This document shows, piece by piece, positions 52,760-64,000 of a stretch of 64,000 bases of DNA. The DNA is from Phyllobates terribilis (lineage: Eukaryota), in contig NW_027362916.1 in the NCBI RefSeq assembly GCF_046119375.1, positions 1 through 64,000 of the forward strand. Reading direction: 5' to 3'. The position numbers and the translations under genes are program-made. The notes beneath the pieces were generated by a model that saw only the letters and a program-made list of their open reading frames with translations, was not told where the DNA came from and ran no database searches. The first letter of the stretch is position 1. Every line of letters starts with the position of its first letter.

Positions 52760-53584
52760 GTTGTTTGCACTGTGTCTCACCTGTGCTTCAGCCCTCAGGT
52801 TCCGCTGCTAGCCTGACTCCTCGTCCAGCCTGCCAGCCTGTTACCTGCCTTGTCTGTCAGACCGCTCACCTGGGAGCGTCCACCAGTTACCTGCCTGTTA
52901 CCTGCCTCGTCTGTCAGACCGCTCACCTGGGAGCGTCCACCAGTTACCTGACTGTTCCTGCCTCGTCTGTCAGACCGCTCACCTGGGATCATCCACCAGT
53001 TACCTGACTGTTACCTGCCTCGTCTGTCAGACCGCTCACCTGGGAGCGCCCGCCAGTTACCTGCCTGTTACCTGCCTCGTCTGTCTGCCCGCTCACCTGG
53101 GAGCACCCGCCTGTTACCTGCTGTGTCCGTCAGCCTGCTCACCTGGGAGTGCCCACCAGTTACCTGCCAGATGCCCGCCTCGTCTGTCTGCCCGCTCACC
53201 TGGGAGCACCTGCCTGTTTCCTGCCAGCCTGCCTGGAGACCCTGCCGTCACTTGCTGTGACCATCTTCCTGGTAAACCTAAAGACTGTTACCTGCCCTGC
53301 TTTCTCGAACTGTGACCACCTGCCAGCTACCAGAGACTTCCGCCTGCTTGCCGTGTCCATCCGCCATACTGGCCAGTCCCAGCCATCTGACCGGTGGGAG
53401 CCACCTGCTCTCTTACAAGGTCGTCCCCAGAGTAGCACCTGGTCCCTCAGCCCGGATCATCCCTGGTCACGGTGTCGTTAGCTGCCGTACGACCAGGGTC
53501 GGTTCGGGTGGATACTTAGTCACGCCCCTCTGGGTCCCTACTTGCACCTCGGCACAGAGGTTCCACCACCCGGCCCCGTAACAG

Positions 53585-53595
53585 TTTGCTCGGGC
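53585..53595 (+). promoter_or_regulatory. Self-priming PBS (non-tRNA)
   Basis: TTTGCTCGGGC lies 1 nt after the LTR end and is the exact reverse complement of 52749-52759. Confidence 0.8.
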
Positions 53596-53596
53596 C

Positions 53597-54553
53597 ATGG
53601 AACCCGGTGGCACCCAAGCTCCCTCGCTCTCTGACCTATACCAGGAAGTCTCCCGTCAGAGATCCCAGCAGGAGTCCATCCTGAACCATCTGCGGAATGT
53701 CCACTCCCGCCTGGACACACTGACTGCTCCACCTACAACCACCGCTAGTTGCACGACTCGCACCCCGGCAGCGCCGCTGCCCATCAATACCATGGCATCC
53801 TGCTCTGGACTCCGGCTTTCTGCACCTCCTCGTTTCGGAGGTGACCCCGCTCAAGCTCGGGGCTTCATAAACCAGTGCACCCTGCACTTTGAACTCTTGG
53901 CACATCACTTTACCACCGACCGGGCCAAAGTGGCTTTCATAATGTCCCATCTCACTGGACAGGCACTGGCTTGGCTAAATCCCCTGTGGGAGAGAGGGGA
54001 TCCCCTAGTATCCAACTTGTCAGCTTTCCTCACTGCTTTCCGGAAAGTCTTCAATGATCCGGGATGAAAGACCTCGTCAGCCTCCTCTCTGCTACGTCTC
54101 CGCCAAGGGAGTCTCACCGTAGGCCAATATGCCATACGGTTCCGTACCCTCGCTTCTGAACTTGCCTGGGATAACGAGGCCCTGCTGTCCGTCTTCTGGG
54201 AGGGTCTTTCCATTCGGATTAAAGTAGAACTTGCCGGTCGGGACATCCCTCCCACCCTGGACGACCTAGTGTCACTTGCTACCCGGATTGACATCCGGTT
54301 CCAGGAACGTACCAAGGAAACCACCCGTGAGAGAAGGTTTCCCCGCCTTGCTCCTAACTTCCAGAGACCTGTCTCTTCTTCAGTCACTCCCCGGGCGCAC
54401 TCACCCGAGCCCATGCAGGTCGACCAGACCAAGTTGGTCAAATCCCACCAGGAGTCACGCCGGGCCTAGGGGAGCTGTTTCTATTGTGGCAGCAAGGAGC
54501 ACCTGATTCGTTCCTGCCCGGAGAGGCCGGGAAACGCCGGTGTCTAGGATCGC
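53597..54553 (+). pseudogene. Gag (retrotransposon gag, CCHC knuckle) with two in-frame stops
   Basis: PPRFGGDPAQARGFINQC..KVAFIMSHLTGQALAW..LRQGSLTVGQYAIRFRTLA..CFYCGSKEHLIRSC; TGA at 54065-54067 and TAG at 54467-54469. Confidence 0.9.
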
Positions 54554-57500
54554 TCGGAGAGGTCGTCCTAGACAAAAGTAAGTCCTCTCCCTCCCTGACT
54601 TTGTCTGTCTCTCTCTCCTGGGGAGAGGATCGGCACTTTGAAAACGCTCACCTGGACTCTGGAGCGGCTGGGAACCTCATCTCCCAGTCCTTAGTTGAGA
54701 GATACCGTATTCCCACAAAGCTTCTCACTGAACATTTGTCAGTTGCCTCCGTGGATGGTAAACTCCTTCCAGTACCCATCCTGCTCGTCACTGAACCCTT
54801 AACTCTGCAGGTGGGAATGCTGCACTCTGAGAAGATCTCCTTCCATGTGCTATCTGGACTCTCTCACTCCCTGTTGCTAGGTCTACCTTGGCTCCAGACA
54901 CATGAACCCGTATTGAACTCGCGATCTGGCGAAGTACTCCGGTGGGGTCCAGACTGCCATAGGACCTGCCTGGTTCCGGTCCGCCCAGCTCGCCTTCCGC
55001 CTACTCCAGCTAATCTTCCCGGTCTCCCGGCTCCATACTGGCCCTATGCGGACGTCTTCGGTAAAAAGGAGTCAGAGACGTTGCCACCCCATAGGCCATA
55101 TGACTGCCCGATCGACCTGGTACCTGGTGCCACTCCTCCCCGTGGGCGTATCTACCCGTTGTCTGCGGCCGAAACCCGGGCCATGTCTGAATACATTGAG
55201 GAGAATCTGGCTAGGGGATTTATCCGAAAATCTACCCCCCCGGCTGGAGCCGGATTCTTCTTTGTCAAAAAGAAAGACGGCTCGCTACGTCCCTGTATTG
55301 ACTACAGAGGACTCAATCTAATCACTATAAAAAACAAATACCCCCTGCCGCTCATCTCCGAATTGTTTGACCTTCTCAAGGGCGCCAGGATCTTCTCCAA
55401 GCTGGATCTAAGAGGGGCATATAACTTGGTCCGTATCCGTCAAGGAGACGAGTGGAAGACAGCATTCAATACCCGGGACGGTCACTATGAGTACCTTGCG
55501 ATGCCCTTTGGTCTCTGTAACGCCCCCGCTGTCTTTCAAGAGCTGGTCAACGACATCTTCCGTGACCTCTTGTACTCCTGCGTAGTGGTTTACCTGGACG
55601 ATATCTTGGTCTTCTCTCCGGATCTCCCCACACACCGGAGGGATGTTCGTCAGGTCCTGCTTAGGCTCCGGCAGAACCACCTCTATGCCAAATACGAGAA
55701 GTGCCTCTTCGACCAGACCTCCCTTCCATTCTTGGGCTATGTTATCTCCCAGACAGGTCTACAAATGGATCCGGAGAAGCTCTCTTCTGTTCTAAAATGG
55801 CCCCGTCCAGAAGGTTTGAAGGCGATACAGCGATTCCTGGGCTTCGCTAATTACTATCGTCTTTTCATCCCACACTTCTCATCCCGGACTGCTCCCATAT
55901 CTGTGCTTACCCGTAAGGGGGCAAATCCCAAGGTATGGTCACCTGAAGCCGAGGAGGCCTTCCTTTCCTTAAAGAGAGCCTTCGCCTCTGCCCCCGTCCT
56001 GCATCGTCCGGACTATAATAAACAATTCTACCTGGAGGTTGATGCCTCCTCCTCCGGAGCCGGAGCGGTACTCACCCAAAAATCTTCTACCGGGAGAATG
56101 GTAACCTGCGGCTTCTTTTCCAAAATCTTCTCCTCGTCTGAGAGCAACTACTCCATAGGAGACCGTGATTTGCTAGCCATCAAATTGGCACTGGAGGAGT
56201 GGCGCTATCTGCTAGAAGGGGCTCTCTACCCGGTAATCATCTACACGGATCACAAAAACCTGGCATATCTCCAAAATGCCCAGAGACTCAATCCTCGCCA
56301 GGCCCGGTGGTCGTTGTTTTTTGCCCGTTTCGACTTCATTCTTCATTTCCGCCCAGCGGACAAGAACGTCAAAGCTGATGCCTTGTCCCGGTCCTCCCTG
56401 TCCTCCGATCTAGAGGAGGAGCCTACGCACATCATTGACTCCTCCAAGGTGATGAATGTGGCCCCCTTGGATCTGACTCGTCTTCCACCCGGTAAGACAT
56501 TTGTAGCAGTATCCGATCGGGAGAGGGTTCTTCGCTGGGGACATTTTTCTAAACTAGCTGGCCATGCTGGCCAAAAGAAGACCTTCCAGCTCATTTCCCG
56601 GCATTACTGGTGGGCCTACCTTGCGTAAGGACGTTGTAGACTTCGTCGCGGCCTGTTCATCCTGTGCCCGTAACAAAGTTCCCAGACATGTACCAGCTGG
56701 CCATCTCTTGCCCCTGCCCGTACCTGCTGCTCCATGGCAGCACATTGCTATGGACTTTATCACCGATCTTCCTGTTTCTGCCGGTTGTACAGTCATTTGG
56801 GTGGTCGTTGACCGCTTTTCTAGAATGGCCCACTTCATTCCCCTGCCTGGCCTCCCATCTGCACCCGAGCTGGCTAAAGACTTTATCCGCCATATCTTCC
56901 GTCTCCATGGCCTACCCCTCCACATCGTGTCGGATCGTGGGGTTCAGTTCACCTCACGCTTCAGGAGAGCCACATGTAAGCTGCTAGACGTCACCCTGGA
57001 TTTCTCCTCCGCTTACCACCCACAGTCCAATGGTCAAGTGGAGCGAATCAATCAGATCCTGACCAGCTACCTCCGGCACTTCGTTAATGCCCACCATTCG
57101 GATTGGGTGGATCTCCTACCATGGGCCGAGTTCTCTTATAATAATCATGAGAGCGAATCCTCTTCCCAATCCCCGTTCTTTATTGTCAATGGCCAGTACC
57201 CCCGGATTCCAGTTCCTGTCTCCGCTTCTGTGGACAACCCTGCCGCAGAGTCTCTTGTCAGCGAGTTTTCTACTATTTGGGAGAATACCAGGTCCGCTCT
57301 TCTTCTGTCCTCCGAGCGGATGAAGAGATATGCTGATAAGAGACGTCTGGATCCACCTCAATTCCGTCCGGGAGACAAGGTTTGGCTCTCTTCCAAATAT
57401 GTACGGCTCAAAGTACCCTCCTACAAGTTGGGCCCTCGGTTCATCGGACCCTTCGAAGTTCTCAGGCAAATTAACCTAGTGGCCTACAAATTAAAACTCC

Positions 57501-57597
57501 CAGCCACCCTACGCATTCCCAACTCCTTCCACGTATCCCTCCTCAAACCCATTGTCCTTAACACTTTTTCCGACAATCCAGGTACTCCTCCTACTCC
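54529..57597 (+). pseudogene. Pol (PR-RT-RH-IN) entered by -1 frameshift at GGGAAAC; one frameshift near 56615; cut by the ERV before the chromodomain
   Basis: ORFs 54484-56628 and 56564-57742; the last ~47 codons of the second ORF are ERV LTR read-through. Confidence 0.9.
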
Positions 57598-58115
57598 TGT
57601 CAGGGTAAAAGAGAATATATATATTTGTAACTTTTATACTTTTGTAACTTTTATACGCTTTTTTGCTAATGTACTAACCACCATTTTGTGTCATATAACA
57701 ATAAGCTTTCCTTGCTACGTAATTACTCAAATCGAAACTTAAACTAAGACATTTCCAGTGTTGCCAAGACATTTCAGAGAAATGAAACAAGATTATAAGC
57801 TGACGGCTGCAATTTCTGCCCAGAGACTGAGATAAGGAGATGTGGACCAATCAGGAGTGGCCAGACATTGGAATTTCATGGTTTACCCCGCCCCGGACAA
57901 CCCCTTTTCCCTCCCATTATGTAGTGTATTTAGATTTGTGCATGTAAAAATAAATTCAGAACAATGCTGAGGAGGTTGACTGTAGTAGTCTTCTGAGCAT
58001 GCTCTGAGCTTGAACCAGCTTGTTGCCTGACTCATTCTTTGAATGGTTGACCCATGCTCATAGTTTGAATTTGGAGTGACTGGAGGACGAGTGGAATGTC
58101 ATCACGACCCCCACA
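57598..58115 (+). mobile_element. ERV 5' LTR (518 bp)
   Basis: TGTCAGGG ... CCCCCACA; begins abruptly inside the Gypsy integrase tail and is followed by a tRNA PBS. Confidence 0.85.
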
Positions 58116-58117
58116 AA

Positions 58118-58135
58118 TGGCGCCCAACGTGGGGC
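58118..58135 (+). promoter_or_regulatory. Primer-binding site, tRNA-Lys1,2
   Basis: TGGCGCCCAACGTGGGGC, the canonical Lys1,2 PBS, 2 nt after the LTR. Confidence 0.92.
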
Positions 58136-58899: not shown

Positions 58900-60830
58900 G
58901 TACTCTACACTGATGAGTGGCGACCTGTCGGCTGCACCAGTGATCTGAGTCGCGACAGATCATTGCATTCTATAAGAAAATGTTGTGTATATTCAAATTT
59001 GAAAGATTTCGTAAGTTGCGGAATGCTGCTGTAGGAGTTAAGCCAATTAGTGGAGTTACGGGAAGGCAAGAAGGCAAGAAGAATGTTAGGAATTTGTAGA
59101 ACATGATAAGCTTATGAATGTGTTACACAAAAGTTGGGAAAGTTGGGTGAGGATTTCTGCAAGCACATCTTAGAGTAGATGATGCAGGGGGGGGACAGAG
59201 AATGCCGAGCCTTTGTTCGGATACATGAAAGCTGCAGAATGTGATGTGTTATGTGACCCTAAATTGGCCGTAACCCCGTTGATGCTTGTCACTACACCGA
59301 GCCTTCAGCCACCGCCCTATAATGGTGCCAACAACAAATCACCGGAGGGGTGGACGTGTCGGGTGTGTGGAGAGCAAAACCCACTCTGGGCGGGCCGCCC
59401 ATGGCACGATGCCCAGCCTGCCCCCAAGAACAATCCCACCCCCACTCCCACCTCCTCCCTCCAACGGCCATCTTACTACACCTTTTCCTGCCTCCAAGAA
59501 TAATCCCACTCCCACCTCCTCCCTCCCACGGCCATCTTGCTACACCTCTTACTTGTTGTGGGAGGCCCGGAAAGCCCCAATCCAGCCTATATCCACTACT
59601 AGATCCATCCGGTGCATATTACCAGCCACCAGCACAGGTGGAAAAGCCCGTAGTCCCAGAGTACCCATCTGAAGTTAATGTGACACCCTCTGCTCCAGTT
59701 CACGATGCTGAGACGCTTCCCCTGTTTCCTATGGGAGTCACCCACAACCCTGGGGATATCCTCCTCAACTCCCCAGAATTTCAGGCCAGACTGCTCTCCC
59801 TCCGTCAACATACTGTTACTCAAGACGATACGGAGCCAGATGAGGGATGGGCTCAAGATACCCCCCCCTTTACCCCATACGTCTCCTATGGCATCCTCCA
59901 CCCCACATTCATTACCCGTACTCCGGCCCTTGCTCCAAGCAACTGCTGAAAGAGCACCACCCCCCAGCCCCTCAGAAGTCTGGGACCCCTGCCGCTCCCG
60001 GAACCTAGTAGACCCATCAGGACGCCCTGTCACTCTGTCAATAGGCTATGGTGACATCCTTACACATCGGGTGGGGGCCATAGTCAACCCTGCAAACACC
60101 TGTATGAGCCATGTTGGAGGATTGGTTCGTAAAATTGCCCTTGCTGCTGGTTCTACTCTGGCTGCAGAATGCCAGGCTCACTTAGCCGAAAACGGAGAGC
60201 TTTCAAAAGGCCATGGATTCCACAAAAGCAGGATCCCTTAGTACGTATGAATCCGGCCTAGAATACATGAAACAGTTAAAAGCCTGGGCTCAGGATCGCT
60301 TGTCAGATCAAGCTGGGTCTGTACAAGATGTTCAACAAGACCCTGATGAATCTGTGGAAAGATATGCTGCAAGACTCAGCATGCATTTTGAGGATCTCGG
60401 ATACAGTTCTCACGTCAACACGCAGGCCGCCCTGTTGGTTCAGGCCCTAGTAGATGGCCTACAAGACGCTCTCAGAGATGAAGTCTTGAGAGTACGGCCC
60501 GAGATTCGTTCTTCTTCTTTCAACGACGCGGTGAACATCGTCAAAGCTTTCCAAAAATCAATGCTAAAAATGGAAAAGGATACTAAGCCAAAGAAGAAAG
60601 CCGCTCCTGCCATGATATATCAAGCTCAAGAAAGCTACCCACCCCTGGCAACCAACATGGAATCAAGTGGGTAATGGTTAAAGGCACAGGTGATGATACT
60701 CCTCCCACATATAGAAAACAAGACAGAAGAGATGACAAGGGATCATCTAGAAACAGAAGACAACCTCGTGATTCTGAAGGATGAATGTTATGTTGGGAGT
60801 GTGGTAGCCTTGACCACATCCTCAGAGACT
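58900..60830 (+). pseudogene. ERV gag, decayed: PPPY and PSAP late motifs, RanBP2-like Zn finger, partial macrodomain, capsid C-term, CCHC knuckle
   Basis: QPPPY (~59310); WTCRVCGEQN..ARCPAC; TPSAP (~59688); GDILTHRVGAIVNPAN..HVGGLVRKIALAAG (60050-60150); QDPDESVERYAARL; CWECGSLDHILRDC (~60790). Start position uncertain. Confidence 0.75.
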
Positions 60831-60839
60831 GTCACTTTA

Positions 60840-63800
60840 CAGGTGGACACTGGGGCGGCCACATCTGTCATTTCCTCTGCACAGCTCCCTCCTTCTGTAT
60901 CCCTATCACCGGATACCCTCACCTGTGTTGGGGTGGAAGGCCAACATATTTCCTCTCCACTCACAGTCCCTGTGTCTGCAGGACCGTTCACCGGAGTACT
61001 CACAAGATTCTTGGTCTCTGAAACTTGCCCTGTCAACCTGTTGGGAACCGATCTCTTAGAGCGGATGAAGGCAACAATTACCTTCGGAAACCATGGTATG
61101 GAGCTTCTTTTGCGGGACCCTCATTCCGAACAAGGGACTGAAGACCACTGTGTTCTTAAAGCCTTCCCTCTCATGATGATGACCATACAATCTCACAGTT
61201 CCCTCACTCTCTGTGGTCCAGTGGGCCAGAGGACGTCGGCCTCCTGCAGGTTCCCCCGGTCCGAGTACACCTCAAGCCTGGACACAGGTATCCACGGTTG
61301 CCACAATACCCCCTCAAGGCTGCACAAGAACAAAGCTTGGGTACCCAAATCGTTTCCCTCCTGGAATCAGGAGTCCTTGTCAGATGTGTATCTCCATGCA
61401 ATACACCCCTCTTTTCTGTAAAAAAGAAAACCGTTCCGGGAGAGTCTCCAAGATACCAGTTGGTTCAGGATCTCAGAGCCGTCAATGCAGCTACCATTTT
61501 AGAAACTCCAGTGGTACCCAACTCAAACACCCTCTTGTCTCAGCTGCCTCCAACGGCCACCTTGTTTACGGTGTTAGATCTGGCCAACGCCTTCTTCAGT
61601 ATACCCTTACATGAAGATTCGTGGTTTCTTTTTGCCTTCACCTTTCAAGGAGCACAGTTTACATGGACCAGGACTCCGCAGAGCCCAGAACTCTCCTAAC
61701 CAATTCACTCATTCTATGAAGTCTATTCTGAAGCCTTGGGTTCAAGAGAACCCTCAGGTCACCCTTCTACGGTATGTGGATGATCTTTTACTATGTGGCA
61801 CTGAAGAAAATTTGCCAGAGATGTCAGCATCCCTTCTCTGGTTTCTTCACTCAGCTAACTGTAAAGTCTCGAAAGGCGAAGTCCAATGGTGTCTGCCCAA
61901 GGTCATTTTCCTCGGACATTGTATATCACAAGGTGCTAGACATCTGACTGAAGAAAGAAAACAAGCCATCATGGATATCACCTTCCCAACCACCTACTCC
62001 GCTATGCAGACTTTCCTTGGCCTCATCACTTACTGCAGGCAATGGATCCCTGATGCCTCAAAGCTCATGCAACCTCTGTACGACTGTTTCAAGAATGAAG
62101 GCTCAGTTTGGCTTCATGCTGAAGATCCACGTGTTTCTCATCAACACAGACCGTTTTGACCGCCTTAAACAGGCTGTTGTCTCTGCCCCGGCCTTGGGCT
62201 TACCAGACAATACTCAGCCATTTCACGTTTTTTTGTCTCTGAATCGGAAGGTCATGCCTCTGGAGTTCTAGCACAACGCTATGATCATAAGTATCGGCCT
62301 TTGGGCTACTACTCAGCCCGCCTGGACCCTGTCGCCCGAACTGCCCTCATGTGCCTTAAGGCGGTCCACGCTGCTCACATCCTCCTTGACAAGTCAGCTG
62401 ATATCGTCCTTGGACATGATCTAGTTATACAGGCCGGCCATGATCTCTCAGCTGTTCTGCAACAAACATCTCCGAAACATCTCACCAACCAAAGACACCT
62501 GCGGCTGCAGTGTTCCCTATTGTTGCCCTCCAATATAACATTTACCAGATGTCTGACTATCAATCCTGCCACTTTGTTTCCACCTTCTAGGGGGGAAGGT
62601 GAAGAGGGTGAAGGTCCATTGGTGGAACCTCATGTTTGTATAAAAATTTTGCAGGAAGAGACTTCTGCTCCAGAGAATATGGTGGCACATCCGCTCGCAC
62701 ACCCTGCCTTGCACCTATGGACTGATGAATCCCGTTTTGCAGACCCTCAGGGGAAGTTCCACACGGGATATGCTGTCACAACAGACCTAACAGTTCTGAA
62801 GGCTGAAGCTCTACCACCATACATGTCTGCACAAGAAGCTGAACTTGTGGCTCTCACAGAGGCCTGCCACCTGGCAGCAGGAACAAAAGTGAATATATAT
62901 ATATACCGATTCCAGGTATGGACATGGAATTTGCAATGATTCTGGACTCTTGTGGAAGTCTAGAGGATTCATCACAGCTGCAGGTACACCAGTGAAACAT
63001 GCCTCATGGATTAAGGCCCTGATGAAGGCCCTGGAACTACCCATTCAGGTTGCTGTTATGAAGGTCAAGGCTCATGGAAGACTAGAATCCAGAGAAGCCA
63101 GGGACAACCACCTAACTGACCAAGCAGCCAAGACTGCAGCAGTGGAGAATGTGTCATCAAAGTGGCAGGAAAAGGAAGAAGGGATGGGGGAGACCCTGCA
63201 AACCGTAGCTGTGGCGCTCACTAGAGCAAGAGCCAAAGAACAGCCGGCGGAAGACCATACAAGTCCAGCGGAGACACGAGTGGAATCCAGGGGGGTTAGG
63301 ATGCCTGAAGAAAAATTGTGTGAGGAACAAAGGGAGACCCCCACTGAAGAAGTCAAGCAATGGAAAGCGGCAGGAGCTGTGCTGGCAGGTCGCAAAGATT
63401 CAAAGGTCAACTCGACTCTTTACCAAGTGGATGGGAAGCCTTGCTTGCCTAGACGCATGTACTCAGCTGTGGCAGCATGGGCTCACGGGCCTACACACAG
63501 AGGAAAGAATCAAGCCTTGGCATGTATCAAGAAACTGTACTTTGCACCCGGAATCTCTTCCACTGTGACTGCGTACTCAAAATCCTGCTCTGTCTGCGCT
63601 ACCTGCAACCCAACGTGTACGGCACGGGTCCCTCTCCAACACCTGGCTAAACCAGACTACCCTTGGCAGAGAATACAAGTCGACCATATCCAAATGCCTA
63701 AAGCAAGAAAATAGGAGTACGTTTTGGTAGCCGTGGATATGTTCTCAGCCTGGCCCGAGGCCTACCCGGTCGTCAACATGACTGCTAAAGTCACAGCCAA

Positions 63801-64000
63801 GAAACTGATCACCAAAATTGCCTACAGATTTGGAGTTCCCCAAGTCATAGAATCGGATCAAGGACCAGATTTCACAACAAATATCTACAAAGAACTCTGG
63901 AACATGTTGGGAACAGATTTGGGCCTCCACACTCCATACCATCCTGCCAGTTCAGGCAAAGTGGAAAGGATGAATTCCACACTCAAGACCCAGCTCTTGA
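60840..64000 (+). pseudogene. ERV pro-pol (PR-RT-tether-RNase H-IN), epsilon/gamma-like, decayed; runs off the window
   Basis: VDTGA..NLLGTDLL; PCNTPLF..YQLVQDLRAVN..VLDLANAFF..RYVDDLLL; LWTDESR..SAQEAEL; HGPTH..CSVCATC; QVDHI..ESDQG..GKVERMN. Several frameshifts and stops. Confidence 0.92.

Follow-up and report, generated by a model that had tools for sequence, protein, structure and literature searches.

The window analyzed here, a stretch of 64,000 nucleotides of Phyllobates terribilis DNA (contig NW_027362916.1, positions 1 to 64,000), ends within a class I endogenous retrovirus (ERV) of 7636 bp that extends from position 57598 to contig position 65233. The provirus is inserted in the integrase end of a Ty3/gypsy retrotransposon, which resumes past the 3' LTR; the part of this element just after the insertion point (L033:1234-1440) reads like what we take to be a chromodomain. 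A 4-bp target duplication (CTCC) and a polypurine tract are present, the two LTRs differ at 1 of 518 positions, and the primer binding site is presumably of the tRNA-Lys1,2 type. The coordinates of the features are listed in Table 1.

Table 1. Features of the provirus and of the element into which it inserted, with the basis of each assignment
Feature	Position	Strand	Basis
Ty3/gypsy retrotransposon (host of the insertion, not part of the ERV)	53582..57597	+	Pfam Ty3_capsid, RVT_1, rve, SH3_Tf2-1
5' LTR, 518 bp, TG...CA	57598..58115	+	LTR pair comparison
Primer binding site	58118..58135	+	Sequence
gag matrix region, broken by indels in the window copy	58980..59300	+	Alignment to open sister frames and RMERV Gag
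PPPY late-domain motif	59309..59320	+	Translation; kept in 5/5 aligned Gags
RanBP2-type zinc finger remnant	59351..59392	+	Pfam PF00641 E 0.004, below cut-off; complete in sisters
PSAP late-domain-like motif	59686..59697	+	Translation; in 8/8 aligned family copies
Macrodomain, N-terminal ~70 residues	59999..60213	+	Translation, Pfam, PDB matches; domain whole in sisters
9-bp microhomology junction of the 689-bp deletion	60205..60213	+	Comparison with natural undeleted copy
Capsid, C-terminal part	60214..60560	+	96% DNA identity to sister gag; RMERV Gag homology
Single CCHC zinc knuckle (nucleocapsid)	60791..60832	+	Pfam zf-CCHC E 0.006
pro-pol: protease, RT, RNase H, integrase; frameshifted	60834..64000	+	Pfam
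3' LTR	contig 64716-65233, just beyond the window end		LTR pair comparison

The gag and pol genes of this copy are broken over many frames. In addition to a 689-bp deletion in gag, a second deletion lies after the CCHC knuckle and across the gag-pro boundary, where sister copies are ~170-190 bases longer. The pro-pol region ends ~450 bases beyond the window and is followed by a short env remnant only, ~1.85 kb of env being missing. With no open gag, pol or env, the copy is not autonomous.

Upstream of the macrodomain, gag contains a 69-bp (23-residue) tandem repeat (59417-59553 in the window) that is present in 2 to 4 copies among family members. The PSAP motif is absent from the corresponding place in the aligned Gag of RMERV, an ERV of the cane toad Rhinella marina. 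The RanBP2-type finger (PF00641) has an E-value of 9e-4 in sister copies, below the cut-off, and of 1.3e-5 in an Ascaphus relative. A C4 finger of this type follows PPPY in every examined Gag of the clade (sister residues 164-188) and, as a second additional domain, is unusual among retroviral Gags.

A truncated macrodomain in gag

Working from the sequence alone, the initial annotation had proposed that positions 60020-60211 encode the N-terminal half of a macrodomain inside gag, and that the second half had been lost together with the N-terminal half of the capsid. This segment is an open forward-strand translation of 64 residues with no stops. The suggested profile search against Pfam Macro (PF01661) returned an E-value of 3.9e-4 and 20.8 bits. 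This falls slightly short of the 22-bit cut-off, since the segment covers no more than profile positions 1-40; with the sister copies taken into account, the match is far above chance. In a PDB sequence search, 9/9 matches at E<=0.01 were macrodomains or a macrodomain-based design, the best being PARP9 (1.6e-5) and PARP14 (1.1e-4). The remnant keeps the adenine-binding Asp, the NPAN motif and the H-V-G-G catalytic loop. Comparison with a natural undeleted copy bears out the proposed loss as a 689-bp deletion at a 9-bp direct repeat. The window copy encodes no functional macrodomain and cannot deliver one, and its gag is split over several frames.

Sister copies carry the whole domain, in frame, with a GIFG loop, and located between the late domains and the capsid, as the initial annotation had anticipated; its concern that the segment might be missing from the rest of the family has thus not materialized. 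Capture after integration is ruled out by the whole domain in sister copies and in other frog genera, and by purifying selection.

A defective subfamily defined by the 689-bp deletion

The deletion lies between two 9-bp direct repeats, removes codons 486-715 (the C-terminal half of the macrodomain, the linker and the N-terminal half of the capsid) and shifts the reading frame. The 9-bp microhomology suggests an RT template switch. Genome-wide, exact matches to the deleted junction number 452 and those to the undeleted one 193, both lower bounds, with several dozen of the undeleted matches located in one tandem array; reversed controls gave 0. Among 52 classified loci, which had been picked by protein searches, 22 have the deleted junction and 30 are without it. 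The window copy is thus a member of a defective subfamily that outgrew its parent.

All six deleted-type copies examined lack ~1.7 kb of env (~1.85 kb in the window copy), and a 639-codon env frame is found in 4/6 undeleted-type copies (Pfam TLV_coat E 1.8e-10, a gamma-type env). Since the deleted subfamily has no env and yet outnumbers its undeleted parent, it was most likely spread by packaging and copying with helper proteins. In this scheme, the deletion would have arisen once through RT template switching, and the defective subfamily would then have multiplied on proteins supplied by helpers.

Two further insertions (L001, C1:692.6 Mb; L004, C364:1.05 Mb) match the window copy at 100% over 3192 bp but lie in other flanking sequence, which points to a very recent burst. 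The different flanks rule out assembly duplication as the source of these two copies. The LTR pairs of five undeleted-type copies show 0-1 substitutions each.

At C3:639.0-643.5 Mb, and also at C7:182.8-183.3 Mb and on C684, dozens of same-strand copies occur at a spacing of roughly 60 kb or more, a pattern suggestive of a large tandem segmental array that contains the provirus. Contigs from sequencing runs (8 of 18 runs) were also inspected. In five runs from two studies of organism A (X1, X2, X3, X15 and X16), contigs bridge the 689-base joint; the same runs cover the undeleted interval (L026:2609-3299) at hundreds-fold lower depth, and no joint was seen in the contigs of three runs of organism B. 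As the run type was guessed and contig depth is unsuited to ranking, the dominance of the deleted subfamily in those five libraries, with a depth gap far above the ~2:1 genomic junction ratio, is only a hint, and the run data are not counted as evidence.

Undeleted sister copies encode a complete Gag macrodomain

The gag frames of the sister copies span 881-974 codons in 7/8 aligned and 711 codons in the remaining one. The order of their elements is matrix, PPPY, RanBP2-type finger, 23-residue repeats, PSAP, macrodomain, capsid and one CCHC knuckle. The frame ends in TGA and is followed by pro-pol in the same frame, with the context TGA-CGG in 4/4 sister sequences, a context lost in the window copy. 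It resembles the UGA-C readthrough context known from alphaviruses. Pfam Macro has an E-value of ~3e-24 in 4/4 sister frames scanned, and the domain is whole in 36/40 undeleted copies taken in genome order.

In a PDB sequence search, the whole sister domain matches PARP14 MD1 (1.4e-27) and PARP9 MD1 (3.6e-23) best, followed by bacterial MacroD and human MacroD1 and MacroD2 (5e-15 to 8e-13, with MacroD1 at 1e-14). An AlphaFold2 model calculated with a 40-row alignment reached a pLDDT of 94.9, compared with 47.8 for single-sequence folding. The modeled domain has PARP14 MD1 bound to ADP-ribose (3Q6Z) as its top PDB fold match, with a TM-score of 0.83, and RMERV Gag as its top viral fold match.

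Passages of PMC10470015 define mono-ADP-ribosylhydrolases by the motifs N(6x)GG[VLI] and G[VIA][YF]G, both present in PARP14 and PARP9 MD1, and describe the reader domains MD2 and MD3 as being without both. The first motif, the catalytic loop with its upstream His, occurs in the sister copies, and the second, the diphosphate loop, reads GIFG in them and is deleted from the window copy. The domain thus has the features of a putative ADP-ribosylhydrolase; the initial annotation had envisaged an anti-PARP enzyme or an ADP-ribose reader. According to a passage of PMC7729036, the important residues comprise the adenine Asp, the final Asn of NAAN, the His preceding the glycines, and a Gly and a Phe of loop 2. 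With positions matched by alignment to these published residues, the numbering being our own reading, the adenine Asp, the catalytic Asn, both Gly of loop 1 and the Gly and Phe of loop 2 carry no amino-acid change in any of the 39-40 copies that cover them, and the His upstream in loop 1 is changed in one copy.

The initial annotation had left open whether the H-V-G-G sequence reflects decay or a real variant, and the comparison of copies supports the latter. The residue after the His is V or A (A in 23/40 copies), and the same position holds I, V, Y, A, C or G in host-type PARP14 and PARP9 MD1 domains, HIGG, HYGG, HVGG and HAGG being among the resulting loops; PARP14 of the same frog genome carries HIGG. 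Because host MD1 domains vary likewise at this residue, HVGG is normal for the PARP9/14 MD1 subtype, and the copy survey together with the host comparison rules out decay of the loop. The NAAN position reads NPAN, with both Asn retained, and NPAN is seen as well in PARP14-like MD1 domains, P0106 and P0154 among them; the site of the Pro is described in a passage of PMC7729036 as facing the phosphates. Weaker motifs are found in relatives, with A-G-V for G-G-[VLI] in RMERV and G-L-F-R in loop 2 of the Ascaphus Gags.

The macrodomain is under purifying selection

Selection was assessed on the first 40 of the 193 exact undeleted-junction places in genome order, by counts against one natural reference and not by codon models. 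The analysis was repeated on this sample because an earlier value of 0.11, from 29 copies chosen by protein similarity, was biased by that choice. Macrodomain changes common to at least three copies comprise 10 nonsynonymous and 21 synonymous (pN/pS 0.17, p 1e-6 versus neutrality), compared with a pN/pS of 0.59 for rare changes (shared versus rare, Fisher p 0.004). Elsewhere in gag, pN/pS is 0.21 in the matrix, 0.05 in the capsid, 0.27 in the upstream Pro-rich linker and 1.10 in the downstream linker; within the family, selection on the domain does not differ significantly from that on the pooled linkers (Fisher p 0.18). Between the family and RMERV, identity is 52% in the domain, 64% in the matrix and 67% in the capsid, compared with 25% and 6% in the flanking linkers. 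The macrodomain of the undeleted family is under purifying selection, which is silent on the activity that is maintained.

Distribution and origin of the domain

The same Gag layout is found in RMERV, in two species of Ranitomeya, in Ascaphus and in two further families of the P. terribilis genome, and the macrodomain is in frame in hundreds of copies. These two Gag macrodomain families, B (L055-L065, L067-L069, L071-L073) and C (L070, L074, L075), carry the loops NAAN..HNGG and NATN..HRGG, and their RTs are 58-66% identical to that of the window family. Among the 120 Pol matches listed, the nearest are from Ranitomeya (83%) and Ascaphus (70%), and the named reference epsilonretroviruses (WDSV, RMERV, Xen1) do not occur. 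The RT of the window family groups with frog class I ERVs. Together with the Gag homology to RMERV, this agrees with the amphibian epsilon-like ERV that had been proposed as the carrier; the epsilon label rests on the link to RMERV and on a passage of PMC12690878, which places Xen1 of Xenopus laevis and RMERV together in a clade of anuran epsilon elements.

In a careful domain tree of 39 rows, taken from 88 that were themselves chosen from 441 extracted domains, the 10 ERV macrodomains form one clade (98/97). This clade sits inside the PARP9/14 MD1 group (91/95) and is nested in neither vertebrate PARP9 nor vertebrate PARP14. In the 88-row quick tree, the ERV macrodomains split in two, with the window family, RMERV and one Ranitomeya Gag set apart in a group that adjoins long unrelated branches; ERV monophyly appears after removal of 49 rows, long branches included. 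The AU test rejects neither a sister relationship of the ERV domains to PARP9 (p-AU 0.50) nor one to jawed-vertebrate PARP14 (0.11). Placing the ERV domains with frog PARP14 is rejected (0.005); placing them with frog PARP9 is not (0.20). The ERV domain is about one third identical to the MD1 domains of the host's own PARPs.

In an RT tree of 30 rows, families B and C, the window family, Ranitomeya and Ascaphus form one clade (96/98), whose branching order is that of the domain tree, the Ranitomeya and Ascaphus Pol sequences having been matched to their Gags by species, which is an assumption. The sister clade includes an X. laevis Gag-Pol that has no macrodomain and falls outside the macro-bearing RT clade; the virus group therefore does not need the domain. 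As the ERV macrodomains group together in the careful tree and branch there as RT does, the simplest reading of these sequences suggests a single old capture from a PARP9/14-type gene, followed by vertical inheritance with RT.

In the host genome, PARP14 and PARP9 (C9:190.92 Mb and 191.38 Mb; L066 and L054) each encode MD1 in a single long open exon, so that a spliced or an unspliced transcript could supply the domain in one piece. A gene model of Ranitomeya imitator (P0076) has an ERV-type macrodomain fused to an APE endonuclease; since its domain is nearly identical to that of the Gag-linked P0128, the prediction has probably joined a LINE to it, giving a chimeric gene.

Possible function of the Gag macrodomain

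We consider it probable, judging from sequence motifs and the structural model, that undeleted copies of this recently active frog class I family encode a PARP9/14-MD1-like Gag domain that acts as a mono-ADP-ribosylhydrolase and removes host antiviral ADP-ribose marks. According to passages of PMC10499325 and PMC10470015, PARP14 and PARP9 MD1 are proven hydrolases and coronavirus Mac1 also removes mono-ADP-ribose, so the ERV domain would likely reverse marks set by interferon-induced PARPs. The Pro in NPAN, the weaker motifs of RMERV and Ascaphus, the lack of a significant difference in selection between the domain and the pooled linkers, the split of the ERV domains in the quick tree and the X. 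laevis element with no macrodomain count against this reading. A PARP9/14-type gene would have been captured once, long ago, and the domain then inherited with RT. In retroviruses generally, each Gag domain enters the particle in equal number to capsid and is cut free by the protease; a domain in this position would therefore be plentiful where virions assemble and within them. More specifically, the macrodomain would be made and packaged one-to-one with capsid, would probably be freed by the viral protease like other Gag spacer proteins, and may act at assembly or soon after entry, with Gag, viral nucleic acid or host factors as its targets. The complete proposal, in which a frog retrovirus clade took a PARP9/14 eraser once, built it into Gag and kept it active as a virion-packaged ADP-ribosylhydrolase, a counterpart of coronavirus Mac1, is put forward more tentatively, with a likelihood slightly short of even.

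Alternatively, the domain could be a reader or decoy of ADP-ribose instead of an enzyme, serving as a p12-like tether of Gag or the core to ADP-ribosylated host proteins or chromatin, or as a competitor of the macro-PARPs. Its Gag spacer position, stoichiometric with capsid, would suit such a role, the loop motifs differ over the clade (NPAN, NATN, A-G-V, G-L-F-R), and a published model has viral macrodomains compete with macro-PARPs (a passage of PMC4038475). However, the family has both of the motifs that the readers MD2 and MD3 are described as being without (PMC10470015), and the catalytic Asn and loop-2 Phe are unchanged in 40/40 copies, which makes this alternative rather unlikely.

Still less likely is that the domain serves Gag assembly, as a structural element or by binding nucleic acid, with vestigial ADP-ribose chemistry. 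A folded domain of a polyprotein must stay folded, which alone depresses pN/pS, and an RNA-binding-type zinc finger is also present in the same Gag; yet among Gags whose domains are 37-52% identical, conservation is highest at the ligand-pocket residues, and the related X. laevis Gag is without a macrodomain. That the domain is a neutral passenger from a recent or post-integration host capture, for which its similarity to PARP9/14 is the one point, is hardly credible given its in-frame presence in hundreds of copies and in other frog genera, the purifying selection, the identity of about one third to host MD1 domains, the rejected grouping with frog PARP14 (though not with frog PARP9), and the ERV-only domain clade with its matching RT clade.

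Viral macrodomain biology rests on work with coronaviruses, alphaviruses and hepatitis E virus, in which the domain is part of the replicase. A Gag in which purifying selection has maintained a PARP9/14-MD1-type domain in distant frog lineages provides evolutionary evidence for anti-retroviral ADP-ribosylation, and it indicates a structural polyprotein used as the carrier of what is, by sequence and model, a likely counter-defence enzyme. Furthermore, the link between viral macrodomains and PARP9/14 MD1 becomes visible here as a traceable capture. If the packaged hydrolase is real, ADP-ribosylation by macro-PARPs would restrict retroviruses. The surprise is limited, as the window copy itself is a dead derivative and the layout is already in public databases. 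The Gag-macrodomain layout is known, being public through RMERV Gag, and what is new relative to the literature passages is the evolutionary and mechanistic reading, namely origin and selection.

Comparison with known systems

The precedents that could be verified are RMERV Gag and the macro ORFs of fish epsilon-like ERVs mentioned in a passage of PMC4977317. The initial annotation had named Xen1 of X. laevis as the precedent; the X. laevis relative analyzed here has no macrodomain. The literature passages contain no account of a frog ERV Gag macrodomain, its PARP9/14 origin or selection on it, which Basta 2009, Russo 2018 and Kambol 2003 may describe. The passage of PMC4977317, citing Basta et al. 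2009, states that the fish elements sometimes include macro-domain ORFs; these are described as additional ORFs and not as a Gag insert, unlike the domain considered here. Protein searches found no fish retroviral macrodomains.

RMERV Gag (UniProt A0A2U9K508) is the closest system. It has matrix, PPPY, RanBP2-type finger, macrodomain, capsid and a single CCHC in the same order, shares 44% identity over the whole Gag (977 columns) and 52% in the domain, and carries a precomputed Pfam Macro match in its UniProt entry. In both, gag ends in UGA (for RMERV, a passage of PMC13517186). In contrast to RMERV, the window family is a separate family with additional 23-residue repeats, PSAP, and G-G-L in loop 1 in place of A-G-V; its copies, which are very young, number in the hundreds, and a deleted subfamily dominates.

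PARP14 and PARP9 MD1 (PDB 3Q6Z, 9QYD) provide the best sequence and fold matches and share both hydrolase motifs and the upstream His. The ERV domain differs from them in being ~33% identical, with NPAN for NAAN or NASN and a short insertion before the loop-2 strand, and in being embedded in a viral structural polyprotein, with a putative hydrolase activity. Coronavirus nsP3 Mac1 and alphavirus nsP3 are likewise viral polyprotein domains of the MacroD class, and a His-x-Gly-Gly loop is described for coronaviruses and PARP9/14 MD1 in a passage of PMC7729036. In contrast to these non-structural replicase domains, which show ~16-26% identity in the fold matches, the ERV domain resides in the Gag of a reverse-transcribing virus.
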